A stretch of 64,000 nucleotides of DNA from a virus, in the IMG/VR virus record IMGVR_UViG_3300044568_002742, positions 7,068 to 71,067 of that record. One strand, given 5' to 3'. A program made the position numbers and the translations under genes. Below the pieces are notes generated by a model, which did not search any database, was not told where the DNA came from, and worked only from the letters and a program-made list of their open reading frames with translations. Below are positions 1,952 to 24,161 of this stretch, piece by piece; within the stretch, counting starts at the first letter, position 1; the number at the start of each line of letters is the position of its first letter.

Positions 1952-1986
1952 CTTGACAACTGCCAAGGATGGCGGTATAATGTCAA

Positions 1987-2065
1987 GATGGAAAACACTT
2001 GCTAGGATGGCATGTTGGCAGTCAATGCATATCCAGTAATTTCAAAGGTAGGTTGGTTGTTATTT
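1987..2065 (+). ncRNA. Candidate small RNA, copy A of five-copy family
   Basis: Own promoter 1953-1981; TGC-TAGGATG-GCA hairpin; core TCCAGTAATTTCAAAGGTA 2032-2050. Confidence 0.55.
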
Positions 2066-2147
2066 GACATAAATGCGAAGCAAGTTGGTCTGGCCATATA
2101 TGTCTTCCCTTGGCGGGCTTCACTTCTAATCCTTAGATGATGTGTCT

Positions 2148-2460: not shown

Positions 2461-2519
2461 AAGATTGACAACAATGGCTAGTAGGTGATATACTAGCCAT
2501 TCACTCATTGGAGCATATC

Positions 2520-2774: not shown

Positions 2775-2833
2775 TACTTGACAACTGGTTAGTATTACCC
2801 TATACTAGCCAGAACATTCATTAGGAGCAGAAT

Positions 2834-3961: not shown

Positions 3962-4018
3962 GTTGACAAGTGGCTAGTATTACCCTATACTAGCCAGAAC
4001 ATTCACTTGGAGCATATC

Positions 4019-4279: not shown

Positions 4280-4337
4280 TACTTGACAGATCTGGCTGGT
4301 ATGTTATACTAGCCAGAACATTCATTAGGAGCAGAAC

Positions 4338-5500: not shown

Positions 5501-5518
5501 ATATTATTAAGGAATGAC

Positions 5519-6965: not shown

Positions 6966-7004
6966 TCCCAGTATAATAACCTGTAACTTAACTAGGAGCA
7001 GACA

Positions 7005-7307
7005 ATGAATGAACCAATAGGTGCAAATGTCAAAATCAAATGGTTGGATGAAACATTCCATCCAGAACATGAAGTTGAAACATATTGGGTACACTTCTCA
7101 TTCAGTGAAGAACCAGACTTCTCTGAATGTACTGGGGAGGAAGTAGACCAACATGGAGTTCATGACTGGGATATATTCTATTATGTCGCTAATGAGAAAG
7201 AATTAGAAGACCTGATGAATGATGATCCGTATGATGGTTATGTGATATTGGATTACAAATTAGTTTATAGCATTGAAGAAATGTTAATTAATAAAAGAAA
7301 TTCTTGA
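7005..7307 (+). CDS. Hypothetical acidic protein
   Basis: AGGAGCA RBS, own promoter. Confidence 0.7.
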   Translation: MNEPIGANVKIKWLDETFHPEHEVETYWVHFSFSEEPDFSECTGEEVDQHGVHDWDIFYYVANEKELEDLMNDDPYDGYVILDYKLVYSIEEMLINKRNS

Positions 7308-7358
7308 CAAATGTGTCTGGTATGTTATACTAGACACAACATCAACTAGGAGCAGAAC

Positions 7359-7772: not shown

Positions 7773-7843
7773 GTTTAAAATAAAGTTTGACAAACCTATT
7801 CAATATGTTATACTAATCACAACTTAAACGAGGAGCAAATCAA

Positions 7844-8137: not shown

Positions 8138-8196
8138 ATTTGACAAATGTGTCTGGTATGTTATACTAGACTGACTTTAACAAAGGAGCAAATAAA

Positions 8197-8496: not shown

Positions 8497-8555
8497 ATTT
8501 GACAAGTGGTTATTATTCCATTATAATAACCACAACATCAACCGAGGAGCAAATC

Positions 8556-8708: not shown

Positions 8709-8754
8709 ATACAATAGATTTAAAATTATCATTATCAACAAAGGAGCAAAGATC

Positions 8755-8949
8755 ATGAGTTGTTTTTTCGGTATCACTAAGGCGAAGAAAGAAGCATTCA
8801 TTAAAGCATATATGAACACAACCGCGCGGGTAAGTGAAGAAGAATTGCGGGAGTTCTTTTATGACCACAATACAGTAGCAGAAGCAGATCATATTATGGA
8901 CTGTTGGTTGCTATGGTGTGATGGATTTGAACATAACGGGGTGGTATAA
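8755..8949 (+). CDS. Hypothetical protein
   Basis: AGGAGCA RBS. Confidence 0.65.
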   Translation: MSCFFGITKAKKEAFIKAYMNTTARVSEEELREFFYDHNTVAEADHIMDCWLLWCDGFEHNGVV

Positions 8950-9499
8950 TGAAAAAGATTAATTTAGAGATGAGTTTAGAACAGTTCTTATCATTAAAGG
9001 CATTGCTCTTATATGTATTGGATAACGAGCAGGACAGTTATGATGAGTATGTAGAGGAATGTGGTGATATGGGTAACCATATCTACTCATATGCCTTATC
9101 GGTAGCAGAAGCCCTTAAATAAAATTGGAGTACAACATGATTGACTTAACCAAGCTGGAACATCTAGTAGAAGAAATCACCGATATGTCAGCCGACCAAC
9201 TTTGGGATTTGGCTAAGTTGTTAAACCGAGCCAGTCCTGTTAATGCCAATATATTAAAAGCAGACCTTGACTTTGTTGAATCAATGTAATATAATAATCA
9301 CACATTAACACATTGGAGCAAGCAAATGAACATATATGAAATAACATTATCCAATAGATTGAATGAAGATGAGTTTGTTCTTTCAATCGGTACTGCGGTA
9401 GATGAGGAAACAGCAATCAAAGAATGCTTAGAAACATTTACCTTTCATGATATCGAATCTATCAATATCATTCCAGAAGAATTCTACTAGGAGCAAGAC

Positions 9500-10120
9500 A
9501 TGGGATTAGATCAATATTTTTATGCCAGCAAGACCTTATCGGCATTCAAGAAGAAAGAGAAGCTATATATTGATTATTTCAATACTGTAGACGAACCAGA
9601 TATGGACACCGATGAGGGATTATTCGTATCTGAATTTTGGGGCAATGGTGCGGTAATCAGTAAAGGCTTAGACGGATTGCCTACCTTAGATGGACAAGTC
9701 GGTACTATACGGATGGTTAAACGTATGGGTGATACCTATCAGGTAAGCACAGAAGCAATGTATTGGAGAAAATCCAATCAAGTTCATAATTGGTTTGTAG
9801 AACATCCACAAGGTGGCATTGATGATTGCGGGTATCATCCAGTAGGTGTGAATCATTTGGTGGATTTGCAAGAACGCGTCACTCAGATATTAGATGGGTT
9901 GGTGATGCCAAGAGGTAATAAACCCAACTGGATGGCACCATCAGTTAATGAATCAACTGCGAGGAAGTTATTACCTGCCACAAGTGGTTTCTTCTTTGGC
10001 TCTACGGATTATAACGAATGGTATTTTTATGATTTACATGAAACCAAGAAGTTTTTACGAAAAGTATTGAAGCAGTCTACACGCAAGAATTGGTCGTTCA
10101 TGTATCACAGTTCTTGGTAG
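9500..10120 (+). CDS. Hypothetical phage protein
   Basis: MGLDQY, YWRKxNxxHNWF, LLP...GFFFGSTDY, Y.SSW motifs; AGGAGCA RBS. Confidence 0.8.
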   Translation: MGLDQYFYASKTLSAFKKKEKLYIDYFNTVDEPDMDTDEGLFVSEFWGNGAVISKGLDGLPTLDGQVGTIRMVKRMGDTYQVSTEAMYWRKSNQVHNWFVEHPQGGIDDCGYHPVGVNHLVDLQERVTQILDGLVMPRGNKPNWMAPSVNESTARKLLPATSGFFFGSTDYNEWYFYDLHETKKFLRKVLKQSTRKNWSFMYHSSW

Positions 10121-10650
10121 AGAGAGAGTTGACATAATCAATATGAGCCATTATAATGGCTCATCAACAAATAGGAGCAAAATCACATGATAGTAGCAAT
10201 AACGGTATTATTTCTCGGTAGCGTCGTATTTGGTTATCTTTTAGCGAGGTGGTTATAATGTATCAAGTTCATTACCATAATGGCATCATCTCATTTCATA
10301 CAACCTTGGATAATGCAAAACTACTAGCACGCAAAGAACAAATAGATTACCAGATAATCGATACGGGGATAAATGAAATAATATGGGATATCAATGATGA
10401 TATCTTGGAACATCTCGAAAGTACTTGATTTATATAAAGATTAAATTAAAACGCGTTTAAACAGCATTATAATTACCACTACCCTTGGTGGTACCAAGGG
10501 TAAGGTATTTTAAGTGTTGAAAAAGTGAAAAAGTCTCTTATAAGCTATTGATTTATAAGAGGTGAAAACTAAGTTTTTTTCTGTAGAATAAAGCTTGACA
10601 GGATGTTTTAATGTGTTATAATAACTCATCATCACAACTAGGAGCAATAT

Positions 10651-10869
10651 ATGAATGACATTGAATTAAACGCCATCAAGATATCGACAAGATTTCACTT
10701 CAGTGAAGTGGAAGATGATGAGTTGGAAATCTATGGAGCATTATCTAATTCGGATACCGATGATGAGTTCCCCTATGTGGTATGGCGACCATTTGAAGAT
10801 ATGGCTAATGATCAATTATGGGATAGTGTTGAGGCATTGAAGGACGATATCATGAGGACATTTAAATGA
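10651..10869 (+). CDS. Hypothetical protein
   Basis: AGGAGCA RBS, promoter 10595. Confidence 0.7.
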   Translation: MNDIELNAIKISTRFHFSEVEDDELEIYGALSNSDTDDEFPYVVWRPFEDMANDQLWDSVEALKDDIMRTFK

Positions 10870-11099
10870 AGACATTTGATAAAACACTTAATATTGATGC
10901 CAGTAAATTTACAACTTATGCAGTAAAGAGAAAGCTAGAAGATATCTTATTGGATATCTATGGTGATAACTTACATAAAGAACGATATGTGGAACAATCT
11001 TTGTCCAATGACCCACAGGTATTATTTCTATATTATTCTGATATGAAACATGTTGCAACATGGAATAGTAATAAACGAGGTGGTTGGATATTTTGTTGA
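10866..11099 (+). CDS. Hypothetical protein
   Basis: Coupled to the upstream ORF. Confidence 0.65.
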   Translation: MKTFDKTLNIDASKFTTYAVKRKLEDILLDIYGDNLHKERYVEQSLSNDPQVLFLYYSDMKHVATWNSNKRGGWIFC

Positions 11100-11151
11100 C
11101 AGGATGTTTTAATGTGTTATAATAGTCCTAACTTAAACGAAGGAGCATAAC

Positions 11152-11379
11152 ATGTTGAAACCAGAGATAAGACGGTATAGTGAAATTGCACAAACATTTA
11201 TCACTAATGATAGCAAACGACATAACGGTAATGGAGAGATATGCTATCCATATGCCTTTGGTTATAGCTTATCAGAGATGGCTTGGACTCTTGAAAAATT
11301 ATCATTGAATAAAAGACAAATAAAAATATTAAAAGAGTTGACAACAAAGCTAGAAGCTGATATAATAGATATAACTTAA
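11152..11379 (+). CDS. Hypothetical protein
   Basis: AGGAGCA RBS, promoter 11096. Confidence 0.7.
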   Translation: MLKPEIRRYSEIAQTFITNDSKRHNGNGEICYPYAFGYSLSEMAWTLEKLSLNKRQIKILKELTTKLEADIIDIT

Positions 11380-11632
11380 CTGGGAGCAGATCATGAACAT
11401 AGAAGCAAAACGACTAGCAGTAATTGAGGATGCCTTTGATACTTGTTTGAATGATAGCCATTATTTGATGTTCATCTTAAAAGATCACTATGGTAATTTA
11501 TCAGATGAAGATGTTGAAAAATATTATGAAGATGCGTTTGGTGATAAGCCAGATTGCTTGTAGGAAATAAAACTTGACAATGTGGTTATTACTCGATATA
11601 ATAACCACAACATAAATTAACTGGAGCAGAGA

Positions 11633-12421
11633 ATGAATTTACTAGAAAGTGATGAACAAATTATGGAACGTCTTAGAGAACGATTTGAAATTCTCGAGGA
11701 TATGACCAAAGCATGTAAGGCAGGCAAGGTACGGGCATTATTAGTTAGTGGTGCGCCTGGGGTAGGTAAGAGTTTCGGTGTAGAGAAAGTTCTAAGTGGA
11801 CATGATGTATTCGCCACTATAGCACAAGACAAATCACTTAAGAAATATGAAGTAGTTAAAGGTGCCATTACCGCACTGGGATTGTATGCCAAGTTATATG
11901 AATATAAAGGTGATAAGAACATATTGGTATTTGATGATTGTGATAACTTGTTCTATGATGAATTATCATTGAACTTATTGAAAGCGGCATTGGATACAAG
12001 CGAGAAGCGTACATTAAATTGGAATGCAGAAAGTTATAAATTGAGAGATGAAGGCATTCCTAGTTCATTTGAATTCAAAGGCGGAGTGGTATTCATCACC
12101 AATGTAGATTTTGAACATATCCGTAGTAAGAAATTGCGCGACCATTTAGCCGCATTATCTTCACGATGTCATTACTTGGATTTGACAATTCATAGTGAAC
12201 GTGATAAGATTTTACGAATTAAACAGATCGTCGCTGATGGGATGTTAAATAAACATCAAATAACAGAAGAAGATAAAATTGATGTAGTGAACTTCATTAC
12301 AGAAAATAAACAACACCTGAGAGAGTTGTCATTACGTACAGTTATAAAATGTGCTGACTTGTGTGCTAGTTTCCCAGATAAATGGAAACGTGTCGCAGAA
12401 ATGACATTAATGAAAAAGTAA
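11633..12421 (+). CDS. P-loop AAA-type ATPase
   Basis: Walker A GAPGVGKS, Walker B ILVFDDCD, sensor FITN, arginine finger ALSSR. Confidence 0.85.
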   Translation: MNLLESDEQIMERLRERFEILEDMTKACKAGKVRALLVSGAPGVGKSFGVEKVLSGHDVFATIAQDKSLKKYEVVKGAITALGLYAKLYEYKGDKNILVFDDCDNLFYDELSLNLLKAALDTSEKRTLNWNAESYKLRDEGIPSSFEFKGGVVFITNVDFEHIRSKKLRDHLAALSSRCHYLDLTIHSERDKILRIKQIVADGMLNKHQITEEDKIDVVNFITENKQHLRELSLRTVIKCADLCASFPDKWKRVAEMTLMKK

Positions 12422-12433
12422 AACCCCCCCCCA

Positions 12434-12609
12434 GAGGCGCAAGCCTCAATAATAGATAAGTGAGTAGGATTGCTCCCTGAAAACTTATCCAATAAAGTAT
12501 TGAATAGGAAGGATTGCTCCCCTGATAATTCATTACTCCTGAGGACATTGTCCTCATTAACAAGCCCTAATATCGACGGTTGCTCCCCTAGATATCAGGG
12601 CTTTTTTTT
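12434..12609 (+). ncRNA. Structured 3'-UTR/small RNA with three TTGCTCC (anti-GGAGCAA) loops, ending in an intrinsic terminator
   Basis: Five consecutive hairpins; TTGCTCC at 12470, 12514, 12580; AAGCCCT/AGGGCTT stem followed by T8. Confidence 0.65.
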
Positions 12610-12679
12610 GTTTAGGCTATTGACAAAGTAATCCAATCAAGTATAATAGACACATCATCAACACCTTGGAGCAAATACC

Positions 12680-13354
12680 ATGACAATAGTTAAAGCAAAG
12701 TTAGTCCTCGACATTACCTATGATACCACAGAATTACAGGAAGATGGTGCGGATTTAGTTAAAGGACATTTAGAAGCATTGATGGATACTATATCTGGCG
12801 ATGGCGATTTATCAGGTTATAATGATATGACAGTTGAGGAATGGTCGGTAAAGGTTGCCACTCATGAAATCAAAACCCGTATCACCTATGATGAATTTGA
12901 AGAAAAGTATCAACCGATTAAGAATCATTTAGATGATAACGCATCCTATGATGGGGTTATGTATGAAACCTTTGGTGATGAAGTCCAATATATTTTATCA
13001 CTAGCTAATGACGAACATCATAAAGAAAGAGTATGGACAGTCATTGGTGATTGTAATGCCACAGTGGTAGTATCGGGTTATCATTTGGTCAATAGACTTG
13101 GTTATATTATCACCAGTAAGCCATTAGAGCAAGACTACATGGAGGTATATGACCCAGACTTAATCAAAGCAGTAGGCGATGAAGTATATTGGGAAGATTG
13201 CGACAATGATGAATCTTCTGGTTATTACACCATAGCGAAAATTAAAACACCAAGTGGTAAATTGACTGGTACTAGCGATGACGATGATACCATCATTCTA
13301 TTAACTAATGAAGATGGTGCTGAAACCGAAGTATGCTATTACGAAATATCTTAA
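12680..13354 (+). CDS. Hypothetical acidic protein
   Basis: GGAGCA RBS; YETFG.E...VWT...GYHLVNRLGY motif. Confidence 0.75.
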   Translation: MTIVKAKLVLDITYDTTELQEDGADLVKGHLEALMDTISGDGDLSGYNDMTVEEWSVKVATHEIKTRITYDEFEEKYQPIKNHLDDNASYDGVMYETFGDEVQYILSLANDEHHKERVWTVIGDCNATVVVSGYHLVNRLGYIITSKPLEQDYMEVYDPDLIKAVGDEVYWEDCDNDESSGYYTIAKIKTPSGKLTGTSDDDDTIILLTNEDGAETEVCYYEIS

Positions 13355-13440
13355 CAATGCTAGCTGTATCATAGGCGTATAATGCTTGACATGCTGGGTA
13401 GTATCATGTATACTACCCAGAACAAATGAAGGAAAAGACA

Positions 13441-13602
13441 ATGCAGGAATATGACGTAACATTAAGAGAGTATCACGAGGGTAGATGGTTGGATGAAATT
13501 GTATTTGAATGTTCAGCCGATGACCACGCACATGCTCAAGAACAAGCAGAGAATGCCTACCCAGATTGTATAGTGATGAGAGTAGAATTATATGAACAGT
13601 AA
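13441..13602 (+). CDS. Small hypothetical protein (MQEYDVTL..., 53 aa)
   Basis: Hand-translated; promoter at 13386, AGGA RBS. Confidence 0.55.
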   Translation: MQEYDVTLREYHEGRWLDEIVFECSADDHAHAQEQAENAYPDCIVMRVELYEQ

Positions 13603-13755
13603 CGGACATTATATCAGCACTCATGCGAGGGCTATTGCCCCGATGAATGAAATAAAACATGAAACAGATGTAATGATATACACGATCATAATTGCAATCT
13701 TTATATCAATCATAATCAGCTGTGTGAATGATATCAGTAATTCAATAGAAAAGCT

Positions 13756-14301
13756 ATGGAAAAATTAGAAAGAGATACCCCCGAGCTATTAATCACCATA
13801 GATAATTTTTTATCCAAGAGTGATAACAAAATAATAACTGATGCCTTTTTAGCACAGAGTGGATTAAGGTGGACTGATAATGATATCAATAATGTCAATA
13901 AAGAAAAAGATTTGGTTACATCTAAAATTTTAAATGAAGTTAATAAGCATTTTAGTTTAGAGAACATGGTAGGATATGAAGGCTGGGCTAGATGGAATAA
14001 TAGTATTCCGGATTGGCATTATGATGTAGATGAACATGTGTGGTTTCATGACAAAATAATGAAAACACCTATATGTAGTATTGTCTACTATGGTGTGATT
14101 AAAGATTTAGTTGGTGGTGAATTCGTTTCAGAAACACATAGCATAAAACCTAAAGAAAATATGTTATTGATATTTGCACCAAAAATATACCATAAGGTAA
14201 ATCAATATACTGGTGAACGTATGGGTATTGCCATTAACCCATGGGCATTCAAACCCGCTGATTACGTTATACAACCCAGCAGAACCAGAGCTATTTTTTA
14301 A
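13756..14301 (+). CDS. 2OG-Fe(II) oxygenase
   Basis: WHYD (HxD), GGEF, LIF...YHKV, R.GIAIN. Confidence 0.75.
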   Translation: MEKLERDTPELLITIDNFLSKSDNKIITDAFLAQSGLRWTDNDINNVNKEKDLVTSKILNEVNKHFSLENMVGYEGWARWNNSIPDWHYDVDEHVWFHDKIMKTPICSIVYYGVIKDLVGGEFVSETHSIKPKENMLLIFAPKIYHKVNQYTGERMGIAINPWAFKPADYVIQPSRTRAIF

Positions 14302-14329
14302 CTTGACTTACTGAAGCAGACATGACATA

Positions 14330-14635
14330 ATGTCTGACAACACACTTGCTAGCTGTATATATGGGAGGGGAAGAATGAAATCATGTCCAATGTTGGAAAA
14401 AGCCTATCAGGCAGAATATTACAAGAATAATATCGAGAAGATTAAAGAACAACGTAGACAATATTACCAGAATAACAAAGCTGCATTTGCTGCCAGAGGG
14501 AGGGCATCACGCGCTGCCAACCCAGAACTAACCAAACTGGTAGATAGATTGATTTATGAAAGAACACGCGAGGATAAGATTGCCAGATCAAAAGCACGTT
14601 ATTGGAAATTGAAGAAAGAAAGAGAAGAAGCATAA
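14330..14635 (+). CDS. Basic helical hypothetical protein (likely start 14375)
   Basis: YY..N.EKI repeats. Confidence 0.55.
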   Translation: MSDNTLASCIYGRGRMKSCPMLEKAYQAEYYKNNIEKIKEQRRQYYQNNKAAFAARGRASRAANPELTKLVDRLIYERTREDKIARSKARYWKLKKEREEA

Positions 14636-14799
14636 TGTATATTTTATTAATAGCACTATATAGTGGTGAGGTACTTCACACCTATCACGATACCTCCCAG
14701 GAATGTGAACGGGCATTATACCAGGCGATTGATGAGGGCAGGAGAAAAAAGATAGCGGATATTAAATGTTTTGATGCCAAAACTTACTATCAGGATTGA
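14635..14799 (+). CDS. Small hypothetical protein
   Basis: TAATG coupling with the upstream ORF. Confidence 0.5.
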   Translation: MYILLIALYSGEVLHTYHDTSQECERALYQAIDEGRRKKIADIKCFDAKTYYQD

Positions 14800-15056
14800 C
14801 TATGATACGCGCAGGTTCCCAAATGAAATGGCACTTAGCAGAAACCCCACCACCATTAGAGATTGAAGAATTCAATCGAATGGAATCAATACCAGTATTG
14901 GCATACTTGGGCAATAGCGTAGGTGCTGTAATGACAGTGGTTAAGTATAGCAGATATACCGACGAGGAAGAAGGATGTTGGATTGATAATGGAAGCGAGG
15001 CATGGGATGTATCGGGTGTTATAACACATTGGCAATTTTTACCACCGACTCCTTGA
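14796..15056 (+). CDS. DUF551-like protein
   Basis: W....TPP N-terminus and ITHWQFLPPTP C-terminus. Confidence 0.65.
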   Translation: MTMIRAGSQMKWHLAETPPPLEIEEFNRMESIPVLAYLGNSVGAVMTVVKYSRYTDEEEGCWIDNGSEAWDVSGVITHWQFLPPTP

Positions 15057-15110
15057 CATCTATGACTATTGTGTTATACTAGACACAACTTAACACCAAC
15101 GGAGCAAATC

Positions 15111-15344
15111 ATGGAATCACCAACTATCAAATACCCAGCAAATGGCACGGCTTATAAATTACTCAATGGTGTGTTGATGTTCGCACCATTAGATAATGAT
15201 AATGTCATCATTGAGGCATTTGGGGAAGAAGATTGGGGCGAGGTTGACTTTGACCGATTATCTACCGTGGATAGCCTATATCCCAAACAAGCCTTATTTG
15301 TTCTCAAAACCACTATGGAGATGAATGATTATTTGTTGAAATAA
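15111..15344 (+). CDS. Hypothetical protein
   Basis: GGAGCA RBS. Confidence 0.65.
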   Translation: MESPTIKYPANGTAYKLLNGVLMFAPLDNDNVIIEAFGEEDWGEVDFDRLSTVDSLYPKQALFVLKTTMEMNDYLLK

Positions 15345-15409
15345 GTGCTTGACTTAGTCCACGGATGGACTATAATAGACACAACATCAACACCAACGGA
15401 GCAAACATC

Positions 15410-15601
15410 ATGATATTATCTACACCAGAACAAATCAACAAATTCCAATTACTAACTTTGAAGTCAGCATTAAAGTTAGAAGTTTTGGGAATGGCAAGAC
15501 GAGGAAAATCAGCCAATACAATGGCTTGCCAATTACTAGGATTACCAAAGGGAACAAAAAAAGAAATAACCCTAGCAAAGTTAATTGAATATATCGGATA
15601 A
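15410..15601 (+). CDS. Hypothetical basic protein
   Basis: GGAGCA RBS; ALKLE..GM.R motif. Confidence 0.7.
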   Translation: MILSTPEQINKFQLLTLKSALKLEVLGMARRGKSANTMACQLLGLPKGTKKEITLAKLIEYIG

Positions 15602-15641
15602 AAGGTATTGACAAGGGCAAGGATGCCCTGTATAATTACAT

Positions 15642-15723
15642 CATCAAATCACAGGGAAGCAATGGCAGGAAGCCATGTCGGCAGTCGATGCGTATCCAGT
15701 AGTTTCAAAGGTAGGTCGTCTTT
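15642..15723 (+). ncRNA. Candidate small RNA, copy B
   Basis: Promoter 15608-15636; ATGGC-AGGAA-GCCAT hairpin; core 15695-15713; no GGAGCA-led ORF. Confidence 0.6.
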
Positions 15724-15803
15724 AAAAAATAATAAAAAATAAAGTTGACAAGTAGTAATTACCTGTTATAATAATCACAACATCAACACCAACGGAGCAA
15801 ATC

Positions 15804-16019
15804 ATGTTAGATTTAGTAAACGCAGTAAGACGTCATGCAATGGCAAATTATGACGTAGATGGCTGGGACTATTTGGTAGAGTGCTATGACGATGGCGACA
15901 TCATTGAAATTATATCAGATGCTGAAGCAACAACCGTGCCAGAAGCAATAAAGGCAGTTCATAAAGAAGTAAAATTCCAAGATGATTATCGAAAAGAAAT
16001 TCAATCAACCGAGTTTTAA
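15804..16019 (+). CDS. Hypothetical protein
   Basis: GGAGCA RBS, own promoter. Confidence 0.7.
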   Translation: MLDLVNAVRRHAMANYDVDGWDYLVECYDDGDIIEIISDAEATTVPEAIKAVHKEVKFQDDYRKEIQSTEF

Positions 16020-16082
16020 TTACTTGACATAACACAGGGACGTGTTATAATAATCACAACATCAACACCAACGGAGCAAATC

Positions 16083-16337
16083 ATGGCTTATCTAGCTAAA
16101 GTTCAATCAAGTATTTCTGGTATCCCTTGCTTAATAGGGGTAATGACATACGCCAATGTAAAACCTTGGAAGGGCTCAGCTCATTCTTGCCCATCAGACC
16201 TTGATTATTATGGTTACTGTGAGATGGAATATGACGTTTTAGACCGTAAAGGTTATATGGCAAATTGGTTATCCAAAAAAATTACCGATTATGATATAGA
16301 GCGAATCGAGGAAGCCGTACATAATCATTTTAATTAA
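16083..16337 (+). CDS. Hypothetical protein
   Basis: GGAGCA RBS; DYYGY...LDR.GY...WL motif. Confidence 0.7.
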   Translation: MAYLAKVQSSISGIPCLIGVMTYANVKPWKGSAHSCPSDLDYYGYCEMEYDVLDRKGYMANWLSKKITDYDIERIEEAVHNHFN

Positions 16338-16398
16338 CCTATTGACAAGGGCAACGGATTGCCCTATAATATCAGCTTACCAACTAGGAGCAACCAAA

Positions 16399-16560
16399 AT
16401 GAAAGATTTTATCGCATTCTACAAAGAAAAACAAATCGTAGTTCAAGCCAATTCCTCATATGAGGCACAAGAAACGGCTGCAAAGCTATTCAGGGCAAAG
16501 AAGTCCTATGAGGTATCTGTATTCTTAGCTGATAAAGCCGTCAATACCGCAAGTATATAA
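16399..16560 (+). CDS. Small hypothetical protein
   Basis: AGGAGCAACC RBS. Confidence 0.6.
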   Translation: MKDFIAFYKEKQIVVQANSSYEAQETAAKLFRAKKSYEVSVFLADKAVNTASI

Positions 16561-16600
16561 AATAAACTTGACAATGCACATGGACGTGTTATACTAGACA

Positions 16601-16682
16601 CATCAAATCAGGAAAGACATGCTAGGATGGCATGACGTCGTAACAACGAGAGTCCAGCAATTTCAAAGGTAGCTTGTCTTTT
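16601..16682 (+). ncRNA. Candidate small RNA, copy C
   Basis: Promoter 16568-16595; CATGC-TAGGATG-GCATG hairpin; core 16653-16671; ends AAAGACA/TGTCTTT can pair. Confidence 0.6.
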
Positions 16683-16984
16683 AAAAAATAAAAAAAATAA
16701 AGTTGACAAAGTATTTAATTCAAGTATAATAACATCATACCAACTAGGAGCAAATCATGAAAAAGAAATTCTTTGTACATTATACCGATCTTATGTGTGA
16801 TCAAGCATGCATTGCTGAAGTTTATGCGTATGATATCGAAGACGTAATGGAAGACTTCGACTACTCAGCTATACAGGTTGATTATATTAATACCGAAGCC
16901 GAGGAACAAGAAGAAAAATAAAATTGACAAGTGGTTATTATTCCATTATAATAATCACAACATCAACACTTTGGAGCAAATCGT

Positions 16985-17185
16985 ATGACTAGATACAAAC
17001 AGAATTGGTTTGAAACCTTGAATTCCGCATTAGAATCTGAAGGTCTGGTAGACTTATGGCCTCTTGGTACCAATGTATCATACGGGGAAAATGTCCGCTT
17101 TACGACCGAGTGTGGCAAGCACATCTCAGTATATCGCGAAAATGATGGCCGATACGAAAGGCCAATCCACTATAAGGTAAAATAA
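16985..17185 (+). CDS. Hypothetical protein
   Basis: GGAGCA RBS. Confidence 0.7.
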   Translation: MTRYKQNWFETLNSALESEGLVDLWPLGTNVSYGENVRFTTECGKHISVYRENDGRYERPIHYKVK

Positions 17186-17246
17186 ACTTGACAATGCACA
17201 TGGACGTGCTATAATATAATCTCTTTCAAAGCAATCGGAGCAAACC

Positions 17247-17441
17247 ATGTTACAAGCAATCTACCCAACTAAGAAAGCGTTAAAAGAATCAATCGGCAAA
17301 CAATTAAATTACCGTGAAACATCTATGTTCGGCTTAGAGTTTACACCAAATGGTAAATTCTGCGTAGCTGATGGAAGCCAAGCTAGAAAATGGTTTGCTG
17401 AAGTATGGATGGAAAATGGATTAATCGCTAAAGTAAAATAA
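17247..17441 (+). CDS. Hypothetical protein
   Basis: GGAGCA RBS; YPTKKALKE.IG..L.Y.ETSMFG motif. Confidence 0.7.
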   Translation: MLQAIYPTKKALKESIGKQLNYRETSMFGLEFTPNGKFCVADGSQARKWFAEVWMENGLIAKVK

Positions 17442-17597
17442 ACTTGACATAGCACATGGACGTGCTATAATGGTACATCATCAAAACTTTGGAGCAAACC
17501 ATGACAGTTATGCAAATGAACACCATAATACATCTTGTTGGATTGGCGATAATCGCAATCGCAATCATAGTACATAAATTCTGCTAGGAGGTAATAT

Positions 17598-17789
17598 ATG
17601 ATGGATGACGAGGAATATCTCAACGCTGGCGGAAATATCTGCCCATTTTGTAACAGTATAGAAATTCAAGAAGTTGGTAGCACCAACATCGAAGATGGTG
17701 TAGGCTGGCAGTTAATTGAATGTCTGGATTGCGATAAAGAATGGATCGACACCTATGCCTTAACTGGTTTTGTATTACCCCACTGCTAG
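17598..17789 (+). CDS. Small zinc-ribbon protein
   Basis: CPFC...CLDC..W; similar to 340-558; AGGAGG RBS. Confidence 0.7.
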   Translation: MMDDEEYLNAGGNICPFCNSIEIQEVGSTNIEDGVGWQLIECLDCDKEWIDTYALTGFVLPHC

Positions 17790-17803
17790 GAGATAATAAG
17801 AAC

Positions 17804-18031
17804 ATGGATACAAAAAAAGAAGAGGTTAGAGTATTACTTTACCCTGTTGATGACTATGACCGTGAACAGGCGGAAGACATGGAAAACAAGGCATACACTA
17901 TGGAAGAACTCAAAAGGGTATTGCCTGAAGATGTTATTAGTTATTCATTGGCGGACTTTATGAATGAGTGTAATGACCAAGAAATTGAATTAGAAGGTTA
18001 TTGGTTAAGCTATATTAGGGTAGAACTATGA
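17804..18031 (+). CDS. Hypothetical protein
   Basis: AGGAG RBS. Confidence 0.6.
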   Translation: MDTKKEEVRVLLYPVDDYDREQAEDMENKAYTMEELKRVLPEDVISYSLADFMNECNDQEIELEGYWLSYIRVEL

Positions 18032-18213
18032 ATGCACACTGCTAGGAGATAATATGCCAACATTAGAAGATCGATATAATAGCTATTGCCATTTTGCTGA
18101 ACAAATGGGCTGGTATGTTAAAACATTCGACGAATGGCTAGACAGCTAAAAAGATTGACAAGTGGTTATTAGCTGGTATAATGACACATCATCAACATCA
18201 ACGGAGCAAACAA

Positions 18214-18408
18214 ATGAAATTAACACCAGAGCAGGAATTATTTTTCGGCACAGAATTAGTAAGTCTATTGAACTTAAAGGAAAAGAATGGATTGTATAAA
18301 ACTGACTTTGGTGTAAAGACAGCCAAATCATTGGGAGCAATGATTGAAAGTTTATATCACGCTCATATAGCAGACAATAAAGAAACCCATATTAATTCAC
18401 AATTCTAG
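18214..18408 (+). CDS. Hypothetical protein
   Basis: GGAGCA RBS. Confidence 0.65.
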   Translation: MKLTPEQELFFGTELVSLLNLKEKNGLYKTDFGVKTAKSLGAMIESLYHAHIADNKETHINSQF

Positions 18409-18620
18409 TTGACATAGTACAAGGACGTGCTATAATAACTCATCATCAACGAAAGGGGAAAAGCAATGACTTATTATGACGTATGTTTTTGGGGCGGAAA
18501 TTACTACACCAGAGAAGTAAGACCACATTCTACCACAGTCTATATGGATACTGTAATATCATCACACGATGACCCCGACGAAGCTCAATTAGAAGCAGAT
18601 CGCCTTCAAGCAGAATTTGA

Positions 18621-18834
18621 AAACGACCCAGCAAATTGGGAGTAATACCATGCAAAAATACCTTATAGCATTGCCAATATTCAAAGGCGGGATAGGTTTT
18701 AACCACCCCACAATATTAGTTAGCGCTGTTAATAAAAGCGATGCCATAGCTATAGCAAGGCATTTAAAACCTGATTGTAATATAGGTGATGTCAAACAAG
18801 TCCATTACTAAAACGACCCAGCAAATTGGGAGTA
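18621..18834 (+). repeat. 25-bp direct repeat AAACGACCCAGCAAATTGGGAGTAA (18621-18645, 18810-18834)
   Basis: Exact match read in sequence. Confidence 0.85.
18650..18811 (+). CDS. Small hypothetical protein flanked by 25-bp direct repeats
   Basis: GGGAG RBS lies inside the upstream repeat. Confidence 0.6.
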   Translation: MQKYLIALPIFKGGIGFNHPTILVSAVNKSDAIAIARHLKPDCNIGDVKQVHY

Positions 18835-18875
18835 AAATAAATTTGACATAGCACAGGGACGTGCTATAATGTCAT

Positions 18876-18954
18876 CAAATCACAGGAAAGCAATGGCAGG
18901 AGGCCATGTCGGTAGTTAATACGTATCCAGTAGTTTCAAAGGTAACTCGTCTTT
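18876..18954 (+). ncRNA. Candidate small RNA, copy D
   Basis: Promoter 18843-18870; ATGGC-AGGAG-GCCAT hairpin; core 18926-18944. Confidence 0.6.
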
Positions 18955-19038
18955 AAAAAAATATAAAAAATAAATGTTGACAAGTAGTAATTACCTGTTA
19001 TAATAATCACAACATCTCAAAACGACTGGAGCAAGTCA

Positions 19039-19380
19039 ATGACCAAAGCTGAAATAATCGCATTATTGAACACTAATGACAAAGCTATCGCTAGAGCATT
19101 GGTGGTATTGAATGAAAGACAAACCGCAACAGAACAGCACTCAGGTGCTACCATCAACCAAAATGGCGAGGGCTTTACACCAGCCGATGCCTATATGGGT
19201 ACAAGTATGGCAAATGGCGTTATCAAGTATGGTAGATTGACCGAAAAGCAATTAGCATACTGGAGGCAACCAAACGCCAAAGGCACGCCACGTATCAACA
19301 AATACGCAGGTCAATTATTGGCTATCGCTCAGGCAAAGGCAAGATTGGCGATTGCCAATATGGAAAGAGAATTAGCATAA
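19039..19380 (+). CDS. Hypothetical phage protein
   Basis: RQT..EQ....T...NG.GF...DA motif; GGAGCA RBS. Confidence 0.75.
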   Translation: MTKAEIIALLNTNDKAIARALVVLNERQTATEQHSGATINQNGEGFTPADAYMGTSMANGVIKYGRLTEKQLAYWRQPNAKGTPRINKYAGQLLAIAQAKARLAIANMERELA

Positions 19381-19446
19381 TGGTATTGACAAGTGGCTAT
19401 TACCATGCGATAATAGCCACATCATCAACACATTGGAGCAAATCAA

Positions 19447-19698
19447 ATGGCTAGAATCAACACCCTAACAAGTATGGCTGAAAGTTTACAAATTGAATTA
19501 ATCTCACTAGAGGAAAAGTTCCTGCATAGAGCAATGAACTTAAACCCGCACTTACCAATGGGTGACGGTTTTAAAAACCAATGGATTGACGAGCGACAAG
19601 CCATTCGCGCTAAACGAGCAGAGCTAGACAAAGTAATCAAAGAAATCGATGACCTAAATGGCAATGACCAATATCGAGAAAAATATCTACATTTTTAG
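19447..19698 (+). CDS. Hypothetical coiled-coil protein
   Basis: GGAGCA RBS. Confidence 0.7.
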   Translation: MARINTLTSMAESLQIELISLEEKFLHRAMNLNPHLPMGDGFKNQWIDERQAIRAKRAELDKVIKEIDDLNGNDQYREKYLHF

Positions 19699-19731
19699 TT
19701 GACATAGCACAGGGACGTGCTATAATGTCAT

Positions 19732-19810
19732 CAAATCACAGGGAAGCAATGGCAGGAGGCCATGTCGGTAGTTAATACGTATCCAGTAGTTTCAAAGGTA
19801 ACTCGTCTTT
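19732..19810 (+). ncRNA. Candidate small RNA, copy E (near-identical to D)
   Basis: Promoter 19699-19726; core 19782-19800. Confidence 0.6.
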
Positions 19811-20069
19811 AAAAAAATATAAAAAAATAAATGAAAATAAATTTGACAAATGGTAATTACCTGTTATAATAATCACAACATCAACAAAGGAGCAAACCAA
19901 ATGATTGAAGATACATTAGCTTTTGCGGAATACGAAGCCTATCTGGAATTTCAAGCCGAATTTAACGAGCCTTGGCCAGACTTAGCCGAGGAAATATTTT
20001 TCATCTAAGGGATTGACACAGCACATGGACGTGCTATAATGGTACATCATCAACAAAGGAGCAAACATC

Positions 20070-20525
20070 ATGGCAACATCACATCAAGTAACTGTATTCT
20101 TTAATCCCAGCCTACCCTTTTCAAAAGAAGACAAAGCCAAATATAAAAAGTTGAAATTATGTGCGGAGTGTACTGATGACTATATCTTTTTTGATCTAGA
20201 CTCGGCAACAGATACCGCAGTTAAAAAATTCGTGGCAGACTTCAAAGAACTAAGTGGATTAGATAATCCAACCATACGGTATAATATATACATGGAAGCA
20301 CCAGAATATACGTGGGATTTAATAGACTCTGATGACTTCAATGAGGCATTTGCCAATCATTTCGGCAATGGTTACGACATAGTATGTGGTGATGAGTTTT
20401 TTGTAAGTGGCGATACCAGAGAGGAAGCCAAAGACAAGTTAAAACAAGTTAAAGCATTTGTAAAAGAATATATAAAAAATCAAAAACGTAATAGACTGCT
20501 AACACGATTAGAACAATACGCCTAA
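20070..20525 (+). CDS. Hypothetical protein
   Basis: AGGAGCA RBS, own promoter. Confidence 0.75.
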   Translation: MATSHQVTVFFNPSLPFSKEDKAKYKKLKLCAECTDDYIFFDLDSATDTAVKKFVADFKELSGLDNPTIRYNIYMEAPEYTWDLIDSDDFNEAFANHFGNGYDIVCGDEFFVSGDTREEAKDKLKQVKAFVKEYIKNQKRNRLLTRLEQYA

Positions 20526-20586
20526 TATTACTTGACATAGTACATGGACGTGCTATAATGGTACATCATCAACAAAGGAGCAAATC

Positions 20587-20850
20587 ATGTTAGAAAACGT
20601 AAGCAATCTATCACCAGAAGAAGTTTTGAACTATATCGAAATGCCAGTCCATGCCAGCCGTGTAATCAACGAATTAATGGATCAGGTAGCTGAACTCGAA
20701 ACAACCGTAGAAACACTGGAAAATATTCAAAGCGACCTCGAAAATTACTATCATGACCTTGAACATATCATCAACCAAGACCGCGTCAATTATGATAATA
20801 TCATAGCAGAGTTAAAGCAATTAAGCCATAGAATGTATTTGACAATATAA
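20587..20850 (+). CDS. Hypothetical coiled-coil protein
   Basis: AGGAGCA RBS. Confidence 0.7.
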   Translation: MLENVSNLSPEEVLNYIEMPVHASRVINELMDQVAELETTVETLENIQSDLENYYHDLEHIINQDRVNYDNIIAELKQLSHRMYLTI

Positions 20851-20867
20851 CCATATGGAGCAAAGCA

Positions 20868-21170
20868 ATGGCAAAGAAAGACAATAAACAATTGATGATC
20901 GACCTAAATGCCTATAAGCAATTAGAACGCGAGGTGAAAGAGTTAAAAGCCCAATTATCTTCCTCTTATCATTTTGCACACCAAACCATAGACAAGGCAT
21001 CAATCGATCGATTACTCGGTAGTGGTGTATTGTTAGAATTGACTGGCATAGGCGGTAAAGAAATTATCTCACCAGTAATGATCCTCAATGGATTGAGCAA
21101 AGAAACCATCGAGGCACTAAAGGCAGACTTCAAACGAAGCTACGATTATGCAACTGAGTTAAGAGTGTAA
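20868..21170 (+). CDS. Hypothetical protein
   Basis: GGAGCA RBS. Confidence 0.7.
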   Translation: MAKKDNKQLMIDLNAYKQLEREVKELKAQLSSSYHFAHQTIDKASIDRLLGSGVLLELTGIGGKEIISPVMILNGLSKETIEALKADFKRSYDYATELRV

Positions 21171-21237
21171 AAAGAATTTGACATATGGTTATTATTCCAT
21201 TATAATAATCATAACATCAACACATTGGAGCAAACGC

Positions 21238-21498
21238 ATGACACCAAGCAAATTAAAATGGGAAGTTCAAAACACCAACACGGATAAGTATTTTTTCACC
21301 AGAGATACCATGAAGTTCTTTGGCGATACCATGTCCAATTATGGCGTTAGAGCCAAACCAGTAATGGTCAATGGTCAGACCTGCTGGGAGCTTTATCGCA
21401 GACGAGCAGTAAAGAATAACATAATCGATTCAGCGTTTTTTGATGTTATTACATTCAAACGAGTAATTCCAAACGTCAGTATAGTGGAATGCTCATAA
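21238..21498 (+). CDS. Hypothetical protein
   Basis: GGAGCA RBS; FF.R.TMKFFG motif. Confidence 0.7.
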   Translation: MTPSKLKWEVQNTNTDKYFFTRDTMKFFGDTMSNYGVRAKPVMVNGQTCWELYRRRAVKNNIIDSAFFDVITFKRVIPNVSIVECS

Positions 21499-21561
21499 TA
21501 ATACTTGACAATGCACATGGACGTGCTATAATGACTCATCATCAACAAAGGAGCAAACACC

Positions 21562-21765
21562 ATGGCATCATTAATTACCGTTTCCAAAAAACCCAACTTC
21601 CAATCACAGCACCCGAACTCACCAAAGATGCTATCAGCAATTTGCCTTCAAATATGCGGTGGTGGTCTGACCACTACACAAACCGCACAAGCAATGGAAT
21701 TACAATCCAAAATACTGGCAAACGGCAAAGCAACCAAGAACAAATATACCATCACACTAGCGTAA
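21562..21765 (+). CDS. Hypothetical protein
   Basis: AGGAGCA RBS. Confidence 0.65.
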   Translation: MASLITVSKKPNFQSQHPNSPKMLSAICLQICGGGLTTTQTAQAMELQSKILANGKATKNKYTITLA

Positions 21766-21826
21766 ATGCTTGACAATGCACATGGACGTGCTATAATGGT
21801 ACATCATCAACAAAGGAGCAAACCAC

Positions 21827-22198
21827 ATGATTAAAATAATTAATGACAATGGCAGACCTTGGGCAATCGAAATAGCAGATGATCTAGTGTCATTCTATGA
21901 TGCCCGTTATGAGCATACAGACCTAGGCCAGTTTGTTTCAAAGTATTATATCAAGACAATTCTAGAAGGCAATAGCGGTTTATGTCTAGATGGTGGCGTT
22001 CCTGATTGGTCAATCTCACAAGCAGGTATGCAGAGAATTCGAGCTTGGATTAAAGCACAACAAGCAACAGAATACTTTACCGTGTGGGCGGGAGGGACTG
22101 AAGTCAATGACTTTAACCTGACTGAAGAGCAAGCACACATTATCGCAGAACAATTCAAAGTTCTGGGTTATGACGATATTATAATCGAACGAGTATAA
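21827..22198 (+). CDS. Hypothetical protein
   Basis: AGGAGCA RBS; V.FYD.R...GQFVS.Y...GL.L.GGV..W motif. Confidence 0.75.
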   Translation: MIKIINDNGRPWAIEIADDLVSFYDARYEHTDLGQFVSKYYIKTILEGNSGLCLDGGVPDWSISQAGMQRIRAWIKAQQATEYFTVWAGGTEVNDFNLTEEQAHIIAEQFKVLGYDDIIIERV

Positions 22199-22510
22199 TG
22201 CTAGCTGTAAATATATCACTTGACAGCCACACCCGCGTTTGATACACTATGCACTCACTAACACACATATGGAGCAACACACATGACTAAGAAACACTTT
22301 ATCGAAATGGCTAAAATCATCAAAATGAATCAAGACCTGATTGCCCGTAAACAAACCGCTGATGATTTTGCCAAGATGGCTATACAGGCCAATCCACGTT
22401 TCAACAAAGAAACATTCTTTAAGGCTTGCGGAATTTAAAAAACCACTGTATAATATCACTCAATGGTTAAGGGATCGGCTCTTAACCATAACCACTTTTG
22501 AGGATCTGAT

Positions 22511-22741
22511 ATGAACGAAGTTATTACCCGACCTTCCTTCCAAACCATCGAACAAGCTTGGGAATGGCTTGGAGAAATGGATTTGGAATACTCAGATAAT
22601 TGCCGATTTGCATTTACCGACGATCATACCGCTGTGGGTAAGTACGAAGATCAACAAAACCACGGCTGTTGTGGCTCATTCGATGCCATCATTGAAGTCG
22701 ATGGCAGAAGAGCATATATCGGCTGTAATTACGGTCACTAG
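22511..22741 (+). CDS. Hypothetical protein
   Basis: GAGGA RBS; GCCGSFD, IGCNYGH. Confidence 0.65.
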   Translation: MNEVITRPSFQTIEQAWEWLGEMDLEYSDNCRFAFTDDHTAVGKYEDQQNHGCCGSFDAIIEVDGRRAYIGCNYGH

Positions 22742-22793
22742 CAGGACACCAGCAGGACACCAGCAGGACACCAGCAGGACACCAGCACCAGCA
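22740..22793 (+). repeat. Tandem 11-bp repeat (AGCAGGACACC)x4 plus partial copies
   Basis: Read directly; intergenic. Confidence 0.9.
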
Positions 22794-22890
22794 AAAATTT
22801 ATTTTCATTAGGGTATTGCTTTATTGATTCAACGTGGTATAATTATTTCACGGTTTGGGATTGTCCCAAACCACTACGGGAGCAAACCAA

Positions 22891-23433
22891 ATGATTACTG
22901 TTAATACTATTAAGGCACTATTGGCTAACTTAACTGGCACTACATTCGCTAACATCGATTACACCACTGTAGTGCCTACCAGTGCTGGCAATAAGCATAT
23001 CACTATCACTAAGCACACTAACGCTAATGTACAGTTATTCAATGGCATAAAAGATTATGCTAACGTGTACTTGAAAGCAGTACAAAGAACGGCTAACAAG
23101 CTGGATAACAATCCAGAGAACGTAGAAAACTTCATCGTGTCGCCTACTTGGTTTAATCATAGTGATGATTGCTTCAGCCTAGTTAATCATAATAAAACTG
23201 GTGATGCTTATCTGTTTGCCATCTATAATAACGCTAAATCAGAATACTTCATTGATGGCGTTAAGGCATCAAAACAAGCCGTAGCGACCTATTTAACTCC
23301 TAGTGCCAGCAAGGCATTACTTGGTGACGGAACGGTCTATAACGCTACCAATGACGTTACCCATAACGTTACCGTCCGCACCATAGCATTGGCTAACATC
23401 AATACCATCAAGGCGATGGGCGCGACCATCTAG
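22891..23433 (+). CDS. Hypothetical protein, last gene of the early block
   Basis: GGGAGCA RBS; 5' leader hairpin GGTTTGGGA/TCCCAAACC. Confidence 0.75.
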   Translation: MITVNTIKALLANLTGTTFANIDYTTVVPTSAGNKHITITKHTNANVQLFNGIKDYANVYLKAVQRTANKLDNNPENVENFIVSPTWFNHSDDCFSLVNHNKTGDAYLFAIYNNAKSEYFIDGVKASKQAVATYLTPSASKALLGDGTVYNATNDVTHNVTVRTIALANINTIKAMGATI

Positions 23434-23442
23434 GCGACCATC

Positions 23443-23465
23443 ACGTCCCCCCAATGGGGGGACGT
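23443..23465. terminator. Strong GC hairpin closing the early block
   Basis: ACGTCCCCCC-AAT-GGGGGGACGT perfect inverted repeat; no clear U tail. Confidence 0.5.
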
Positions 23466-23614
23466 ACCATACCTGATTATCATTGTCAAATTTATTTTGT
23501 GATGACGACCACGATCATAGTTTTTTTATTTTGTCAAATTTATTTTGCGAGAGGGGCGATCATGCATTTTTACATTTGTCAAATTTTTTTGAAGTTGCCG
23601 TGAAAAACTTTTTG

Positions 23615-23673
23615 ATTTTATCTTCTATTTTATCTTCTATTTTATCTGCTATTTTATCTGCTATTTTATTTCT
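23615..23673. repeat. Tandem 12-bp repeat ATTTTATCT(T/G)CT x4 plus a partial copy, in the non-coding boundary
   Basis: Read directly. Confidence 0.85.
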
Positions 23674-24161
23674 ACTCTTCTAAAAACAAGTAGTATGTGC
23701 AAAAACAGGTCGCACAAAGTTTAAGTAGTGTATATCAATTTTCTACGGATAAATTTTTTATTTCGTCAAAATCCGAAATTACTACCCAGAGAGAATGGAA
23801 ATGTTCCACAAACTCTATCAATTCTTTTTTAAGAATATAAGAGTTCGTAGGGTAATAAAAAAGTAAGTAGGCATACTAGAAAACGGTTTTGAAAAATTCG
23901 CCAAAAAAATTTTCCACGATTGTGGAAAAACTTTATCCTTACCCTGTTCGACTCTATAGATTCTTAAAAAACCTTTTGAGTTTATGAGAATGAATGGGAG
24001 TGACGGGGGGGGTGAAAAGTAAGTGGGGGTATATCGGGAATGGATTTCAAATTTTTCTGGAAAATTTTTTTAAATTTGTTGAATTTGAAAAATCCTGTAG
24101 GATATAAAAAATTTTCACGATTGTGAAATAATAGTAAGTGTGGTGGTTTTTCAAAAAATAG

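Follow-up and report, generated by a model that had tools for sequence, protein, structure and literature searches.

The closest described counterparts of the elements treated here are the promoter early stem-loops (PeSLs) of the T4-type phages RB49 and phi1, in which, according to the original report, a near-perfect sigma-70-like promoter is combined with an AT-rich upstream stretch, a stem-loop, and the Shine-Dalgarno (SD) sequence and start codon of the next gene (PMC2839356). The stem-loop is placed there most commonly between the -35 and -10 boxes, or in overlap with the -10 box (Arbiol et al. 2010, PMC2839356). The same report describes one RB49 stem-loop that lowered reporter expression in the manner of a strong terminator, and explains gene gains, gene losses and mini-circles by recombination between PeSLs (PMC2839356); a later report extended PeSLs to the pairs T4/PST and KVP40/nt-1 (Comeau et al. 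2014, PMC4122927). Here we analyze a 64,000-nucleotide stretch of viral DNA (positions 7,068 to 71,067 of IMG/VR record IMGVR_UViG_3300044568_002742; hereafter the window), many of whose early promoters carry a hairpin in the spacer or over the -10 box. We propose, with a probability of roughly 0.65, that these structures are PeSL-type cassettes, a known kind of element found in a new phage clade. An earlier note on this DNA had read the spacer hairpins as binding sites for the post-transcriptional regulator CsrA, and did not recognize that the hairpin-in-spacer design was already known as the PeSL cassette (PMC2839356).

Fifty sigma-70 promoters near consensus were detected on the + strand between positions 290 and 21800, where they precede almost every small gene. 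Sites on the + strand of positions 1-23000 were accepted as promoters when they had at most one mismatch over both hexamers, or a perfect TTGACA with TATACT, GATAAT or CATAAT; an independent scan found 28 perfect 12/12 sites in 4000-23900. Twenty-eight of the 50 promoters carry a hairpin, which lies within the -35/-10 spacer and has an ANGGAY hexaloop in 15 of them (class A) and overlaps the -10 box in 13 (class B), and the other 22 are hairpin-less. The earlier note had listed the 15 class A promoters, and all of them were found at their coordinates, with TTGACA or TTGACT, a spacer of 16-17 nt and TATAAT or TATACT. Each spacer holds the hexaloop that had been claimed for it, as ATGGAC, AGGGAC, AAGGAC, AAGGAT or ACGGAT, closed by a C-G pair in 14 of 15 cases and by A-T at 16342, on a stem of 4-7 pairs. 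Five of these promoters drive copies of a non-coding RNA (ncRNA) considered below.

1953..1981, + strand: class A promoter, 17-nt spacer, stem ACTGCC/GGCGGT, loop AAGGAT; drives ncRNA copy 1
15349..15376, + strand: class A promoter, stem TAGTCC/GGACTA, loop ACGGAT
15608..15636, + strand: class A promoter, stem AGGGC/GCCCT, loop AAGGAT; drives ncRNA copy 2
16024..16051, + strand: class A promoter, stem TAACAC/GTGTTA, loop AGGGAC
16342..16370, + strand: class A promoter, stem AGGGCA/TGCCCT, loop ACGGAT; the only A-T closing pair
16568..16595, + strand: class A promoter, stem GCAC/GTGT (G-T pair), loop ATGGAC, -10 box TATACT; drives ncRNA copy 3
17188..17215, + strand: class A promoter, stem GCAC/GTGC, loop ATGGAC
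17444..17471, + strand: class A promoter, stem TAGCAC/GTGCTA, loop ATGGAC
18409..18436, + strand: class A promoter, stem TAGTAC/GTGCTA (T-G pair), loop AAGGAC
18843..18870, + strand: class A promoter, stem TAGCAC/GTGCTA, loop AGGGAC; drives ncRNA copy 4
19699..19726, + strand: class A promoter, stem TAGCAC/GTGCTA, loop AGGGAC; drives ncRNA copy 5
20013..20040, + strand: class A promoter, stem AGCAC/GTGCT, loop ATGGAC
20532..20559, + strand: class A promoter, stem TAGTAC/GTGCTA (T-G pair), loop ATGGAC
21505..21532, + strand: class A promoter, stem GCAC/GTGC, loop ATGGAC
21770..21797, + strand: class A promoter, stem GCAC/GTGC, loop ATGGAC

The class B stems are 9-12 bp long; one arm lies in the spacer, the other in the -10 box plus the next 5-6 bases, with calculated RNA free energies of -10 to -19 kcal/mol.

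2465..2502, + strand: class B promoter, 11-bp hairpin between the spacer on one side and the -10 box with the following bases on the other
2778..2814, + strand: class B promoter, hairpin over the -10 box
3963..3999, + strand: class B promoter, hairpin over the -10 box
4283..4318, + strand: class B promoter, hairpin over the -10 box
7304..7339, + strand: class B promoter, hairpin over the -10 box
8140..8175, + strand: class B promoter, hairpin over the -10 box
8499..8535, + strand: class B promoter, hairpin over the -10 box
10129..10165, + strand: class B promoter, hairpin over the -10 box
11574..11610, + strand: class B promoter heading a conserved 262-aa early gene; the orthologous promoter of relatives frequently has a spacer hairpin instead
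13386..13422, + strand: class B promoter, hairpin over the -10 box
16924..16960, + strand: class B promoter, hairpin over the -10 box
19386..19422, + strand: class B promoter, hairpin over the -10 box
21178..21214, + strand: class B promoter, hairpin over the -10 box

The 15 class A copies correspond to 12 distinct hairpins in about four unrelated stem families: CTGCC, GTCC, GGGC and GCAC/GTAC/ACAC. Since the last family alone accounts for 10-11 of the 15 copies, which are near-copies with an ANGGAC loop and often a common leader, the figure of 15 overstates their independence, and the independent evidence consists of the four families. When pairs were anchored on the loop by script, stem pairs 1-4 were formed in every one of the 12 distinct hairpins; each position shows 2 to 4 kinds of pair, G-T pairs occur four times, and 58 of the 60 cells of the first five pairs were paired. 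Shuffling of the 3' arms gave a mean of 41.2, and none of 2000 shuffles matched the observed count, so that the stem covariation with G-T pairs previously claimed is borne out. Across the four families C-A-N-G-G-A-Y-G is kept, with variation only at two N positions and compensatory change at nearly every stem pair. ANGGAY hexaloop hairpins occur 20 times on the + strand of the window (15 of them in promoters) and 3 times on the - strand, against a shuffled-sequence expectation of 4.7 on average and 12 at most. The motif CANGGANG, matched by 14 of the 15 class A loops taken with their closing pair, occurs 19 times on the + strand against 7.9 expected, 14 of these being in class A spacers. ACAGGATGT, to which the earlier note had also drawn attention, is indeed present at 10598 and 11099; we do not count it as significant, the two promoters being mutual duplicates and the ACA coming from the -35 box. 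At 1953-1995, 18843-18885 and 19699-19741 the -35 TTGACA also has a possible partner immediately past the -10 box, TGTCAA or TGTCAT, with which it can form an outer helix around the spacer hairpin (up to -17.5 kcal/mol at 1953), and RB49 is similar.

An open reading frame (ORF) stop lies no more than 80 nt before all 28 hairpin promoters, and no more than 10 nt before 26 of them, whereas it directly precedes only 12 of the 22 hairpin-less promoters, the rest of which follow non-coding stretches (Fisher P = 6e-5). As they occur only behind ORF stops, the hairpins are linked to where the upstream gene ends, as opposed to how the promoter around them works, and this speaks for a function in transcripts coming from upstream. 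A terminator scan detected almost no classical terminators on the + strand of the early block, making read-through from upstream plausible. The sequence 5' of the -35 box is AT-rich (75% versus 63% regionally), and an SD sequence with ATG follows 22-38 nt past the -10 box in 48 of the 50 promoters. The early-gene leaders of 290-21800 are nearly all C/A-rich and free of G up to the ribosome site GGAGCA(A).

The same script applied to positions 110-160 kb of RB49 detected 30 promoters, eight of them with a whole-spacer hairpin and others with a hairpin over the -10 box, and both of these layouts occur in the window. The likeness to the PeSLs of RB49/phi1, PST/T4 and nt-1/KVP40 extends to the near-perfect TTGACA-N16/17-TATAAT promoters, to the AT-rich upstream stretch and the conserved leader with SD sequence and start codon, to the intergenic location of a single cassette per small ORFan in a variable early region, and to indels between related genomes that terminate in cassettes. 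A strong promoter, a stem-loop, the flanking AT-rich and translation-start elements, a setting among ORFans and cassette-bounded indels are all found in the window. There are differences as well: the window belongs to an uncultured giant lake phage and not to a classical T4-like one, the class A stems are shorter and weaker than the G/C-tract stems of RB49, and the loop is fixed as C-ANGGAY-G, whereas PeSL loops are not described as conserved in the accounts cited above.

By aligning contigs of four lake or estuary DNA runs to positions 1900-21850, we could map rearrangement joints relative to the cassettes, each cassette being taken as -15 to +75 around the promoter start. The contigs carry more than 1000 differences from the window stretch. 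Among the 15 joints listed (of 43), 8 have both ends within cassettes, as compared to 4% expected (P = 5e-8); rearrangement joints thus lie inside cassettes in natural populations. They include a clean single-gene loss between promoter starts 16703 and 16924, a joint at the identical offset (+21) in class A promoters 16342 and 17188, and a joint linking the leaders of 17444 and 20013. The crossover points fall in the -35 box, the -10 box or the leader, a pattern consistent with homologous recombination between the repeats that gives no hint of the loop being cut. A direct repeat of about 26 nt (18594-18645 and 18785-18836) stands on either side of the gene 18650-18811, and the 190 bases between its copies are missing in contigs of two runs (joint 18619 to 18810).

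The window is contained in an IMG/VR viral contig of 71 kb with a CheckV completeness of about 20%. Contigs of 345-365 kb are among its relatives, which were found via the 262-aa early protein, and its tail sheath (1085 aa) is 41-43% identical to the sheaths of the giant phages Atu_ph07, Phosso and PA5oct. PHROGs names in the window include sheath, helicases, a UvsX-like recombinase and terminase pieces, and the DNA runs containing the window stretch originate from lake, river and estuary water, with 97% of the sampled words of the stretch present in the lake runs X1 and X2. Together, the size of the relatives, the sheath identity, the PHROGs names and the water-derived runs indicate that the elements described here lie in the early region of a giant phage from fresh water, uncultured, with a genome of roughly 350 kb and a distant relationship to T4. 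The closest relatives reached share about 65% identity in the 262-aa protein. No match to cultured phages was obtained by blastn with positions 15000-22000, and the proteins of 20070-20525, 16083-16337 and 19039-19380 have no relatives in IMG/VR viral contigs. In the block rich in class A promoters (15.4-22.2 kb; 10 ORFs, nine of them directly behind class A promoters) a single ORF contains a Pfam family above cut-off, and the genes downstream of the cassettes are small early ORFans.

In order to compare the spacers across the clade, 80 loci of related phages with 663 unique promoters were analyzed. A spacer hairpin was found in 163 of these promoters versus 75 in shuffles. The loops are often GCAA, GAAA, UACG or CAAAA, many of them of GNRA/UNCG type, and G-U pairs are present. 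The orthologous promoter heading the conserved 262-aa gene has fully covarying stems and freely changing loops (GCAA, TCAA, GCGA, TCAG, TACG and others); in a number of loci (L006, L023, L025, L028, L033, L036, L041, L046, L055 and others) this promoter has a 7-bp spacer hairpin running from the CA of the -35 box to the TG before the -10 box. The excess of hairpins and their covariation indicate that the spacer hairpin is a selected feature of the whole clade, which the ANGGAY loop, judging from the sequences compared, is not: it was found in a hairpin in 1 of the 663 promoters, versus 15 of the 50 in the window. The RB49 spacer hairpins have no consistent GGA loop either. The exact class A promoter pattern had no match in viral contigs, and its one match in metagenome contigs (L081) was discarded as the promoter of a bacterial tRNA and unrelated. 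A looser pattern (TTGACA, N5, CANGGANG, N3, TATAAT) gave five single matches in IMG/VR, representing two distinct sequences in unrelated viral contigs, and no multi-copy system.

These observations suggest how a PeSL-type cassette might operate in this phage. Each cassette, composed of an AT-rich stretch, a strong promoter of the host type, a stem-loop, and a short leader followed by ribosome site and start codon, would separate two small early ORFans. In DNA the 16-17 bases between the boxes would act as promoter spacer, and in RNA made from upstream promoters the same bases would fold just past the stop codon of the preceding gene. The hairpin would most likely attenuate or end read-through, or else protect the 3' end of the upstream message, with the effect that every gene cassette is kept transcriptionally separate, and the repeated cassettes could double as recombination seams for gene addition, deletion and swapping. 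For the double duty of the spacer, which the earlier note had proposed, indirect support comes from the link to ORF stops, the scarcity of terminators, and the GNRA/UNCG-type loops and G-U pairs of the relatives. We infer terminator or attenuator activity of the window hairpins by analogy, such activity having been measured for a single RB49 stem-loop. The class A hairpins resemble intrinsic terminators in lying a few bases past a stop codon and in preceding a U/A-rich stretch, namely the -10 box, which reads UAUAAU in RNA; they differ from them in their stems of 4-7 pairs and in having no true U-tract.

Several results weigh against the reading as PeSL-type cassettes. The RNA free energy of the class A hairpins alone averages -6.4 kcal/mol (-2.9 to -10.1), whereas that of the eight RB49 spacer hairpins is -12.9, and four class A stems have 4 pairs only. 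No U-tract follows UAUAAU and a simple terminator scan flagged none of the 28 hairpins, so that termination at class A may be poor. Two strand tests were no more than suggestive, namely the folding of + versus - strand (10 G-U pairs on the + strand versus 4 on the - strand; Wilcoxon P = 0.085) and the mismatch test in the relatives (40 of G:T type versus 27 of A:C type). Finally, a conserved loop is not predicted by the PeSL model, which does not account for the persistence of C-ANGGAY-G on four stems, and the loops of the relatives vary freely at the orthologous site. If the structures are PeSL-type cassettes, as we favor, the known range of the element, so far cultured phages of the T4 type, would come to include a large clade of giant lake phages that have not been cultured. 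Evidence that came from a few phage pairs would now include hairpin covariation over hundreds of promoters, and the joints described above would add natural-population evidence for cassettes as recombination seams.

The class A promoters are further set apart by an ncRNA family of about 85 nt, the five copies of which all lie behind class A promoters, a class that makes up 15 of the 50 promoters. The copies share an invariant core of about 19 nt, each contains a covarying hairpin of its own whose loop is AGGAR, two of the five contain CACAGGGAAG, and reading frames are not conserved between copies.

1988..2066, + strand: ncRNA copy 1, hairpin with AGGAU loop, conserved 19-nt core
15644..15730, + strand: ncRNA copy 2, CACAGGGAAG and hairpin with stem ATGGC/GCCAT, loop AGGAA
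16604..16690, + strand: ncRNA copy 3, hairpin with stem ATGCT/GGCAT, loop AGGAT
18877..18965, + strand: ncRNA copy 4
19733..19821, + strand: ncRNA copy 5

Downstream of the copies there is no terminator, only an A-rich tract and then the next promoter. The core has no counterpart in the loci of the relatives, where nine fuzzy matches could all be attributed to chance, and a pairing of the class A loops with the core was dropped, only 4-5 nt being complementary by eye. Contigs of three runs carry a 23-base insertion at 2021, inside copy 1.

The conserved loop may constitute a lineage-specific extra layer on the PeSL-type cassette, read by a further factor for which a CsrA-family protein is the leading candidate; the two readings are compatible with each other. 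CsrA/RsmA sites are described as short hairpins with GGA in the loop (PMC7366521). With this the class A loops agree, including in which loop positions vary, as the earlier note had pointed out. Longer forms of the CsrA consensus are also known. C-ANGGAY-G hairpins in read-through RNA, together with the five GGA ncRNAs, might titrate a CsrA/RsmA-family protein in the manner of a distributed sponge, or such a protein might bridge to the GGAG site about 30 nt downstream; in the latter variant it would span the hairpin and the GGAG ribosome site, and only read-through copies would be repressed. We consider this unlikely, and see a similarly small chance that the 15 hairpins on early read-through RNA and the five ncRNAs serve as decoys that, early in infection, capture a global regulator binding GGA loops, be it CsrA/RsmA or a functional analogue. 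In its favor, the fit of 14 of 15 loops to CANGGANG leaves variation only at the two N positions, and the loop is constant on four unrelated stems while loops at the orthologous site of the relatives drift. All five ncRNA copies stand behind class A promoters with a further GGA hairpin each, two also with CACAGGGAAG, and some stems of 4 pairs, weak for a terminator, would suffice for a protein site. The window sites are like CsrA/RsmA hairpins and the sponge RNAs of CsrB/RsmZ type in having GGA in the loop of short hairpins that match CANGGANG, in their many copies, in the second GGA of the ribosome site some 30 nt away and in the GGA-loop ncRNAs nearby. In contrast to the sponge RNAs, the window sites are spread over intergenic spacers of mRNA instead of one small RNA.

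A motif match is the sole evidence for CsrA, and several results stand against it. Rfam gave no match at the gathering score in the whole window, nor at E up to 1 in positions 1-23000, Csr/Rsm families included, and no tRNAs were found. The CsrA family (PF02599) gave no match in the window contig (0/1; about 20% of the genome) or in five related genomes (0/5; CheckV 83-100% complete). The relatives, with one ANGGAY hairpin in 663 promoters, use other loops, so that CsrA binding cannot be the general role of spacer hairpins, and RB49, a phage of csrA-positive E. coli, lacks a consistent GGA loop. The distribution of csrA in bacteria is moreover patchy, some proteobacterial classes being without it (PMC7366521). 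The analysis gave no support to the gammaproteobacterial host suggested by the earlier note. Metagenome-assembled genome bins of relatives bore inconsistent labels (Ignavibacteria, Flavobacteriaceae, unclassified), which we judged to reflect mis-binning by composition, and no host was drawn from them. Were a CsrA-type protein to read the loop, early transcription in the phage would have a direct rewiring effect on a regulator that acts globally in the host at the post-transcriptional level; if the hairpins captured such a protein as decoys, they would be the first Csr-type sponge encoded by a phage, one lodged in its promoter spacers. Otherwise the loop would still mark a lineage-specific reader of promoter-embedded RNA or DNA signals.

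Such a reader could also be encoded by the phage. Lambda-type boxB, read by N proteins, consists of a short stem of free sequence with a conserved 5-6 nt loop on read-through early RNA, which class A hairpins resemble in their free-sequence stems and conserved loop, and relatives in their GNRA-type loops. A lineage-variable phage factor in place of host CsrA, be it a small RNA-binding boxB/N-type protein, a processing nuclease or a partner RNA, would explain why each lineage has its own central spacer motif, C-ANGGAY-G in the window and C-CAAAA-G in the relatives (133 of 663 promoters, 62 of these in a hairpin loop); the contig covers only about 20% of the genome. We nevertheless hold it to be improbable. 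No candidate protein was found: neither an N-like protein nor a nut-site context was identified, the loop sequence is unrelated to boxB, and the RegB family (PF10715) had no matches in five records. As for a partner RNA, no RNA of the window has more than 4-5 nt complementary to the loops by eye, and the ncRNA core lacks a counterpart in the relatives.

Alternatively, the 8-bp CANGGAYG could be bound as double-stranded DNA by a transcription factor switching this subset of promoters, and be placed in the loop as the only non-palindromic part of the spacer. In the spacers of the relatives, CCAAA stands at position 7 in 134 of 663 and TTTGG, the reverse complement, stands at 2 or 10 in 157 of 663, with about half of the CCAAA copies outside hairpins, a lineage-specific pattern that hints at a reader perhaps acting on DNA. 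The clustering of class A promoters at 15.3-21.8 kb, where they head ncRNA copies (all five copies being so headed in the window), would fit such a switch. In the window, however, the motif has a single orientation and is inside a hairpin in 15 of 15 cases, a pure promoter switch does not require hairpin promoters to stand only behind ORF stops, and no known factor is at hand, which makes a DNA site quite improbable. That the loop is common merely through recent duplication of one cassette, with no function of its own, is highly improbable: 10-11 of the 15 copies are indeed nearly identical members of a single family (GCAC/GTAC/ACAC), in which the loop is ANGGAC and the leader is often shared, but the four stem families differ by compensation at nearly every pair and yet keep A, GGA, Y and the C-G closing pair, whereas neutral drift would diverge the loop at least as fast as the stems.

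Other candidates were rejected. A sigma-54 or other alternative promoter in the spacer does not fit the spacing, and the hairpin GGA as ribosome site of a small ORF finds no conserved ORF. In the non-coding stretch 12434-12609, TTGCTCC, which is complementary to the tag GGAGCAA of the early ribosome sites, occurs three times, and a hairpin and a T-run come next; by eye, the RNA of this stretch showed no match to the class A loops. Finally, the promoters 15745-15772, 18977-19004 and 19843-19870, which follow ncRNA copies 2, 4 and 5, have a loop-less palindrome in their spacers, GTAATTAC or GGTAATTACC, which looks more like a site in duplex DNA than like an RNA hairpin.

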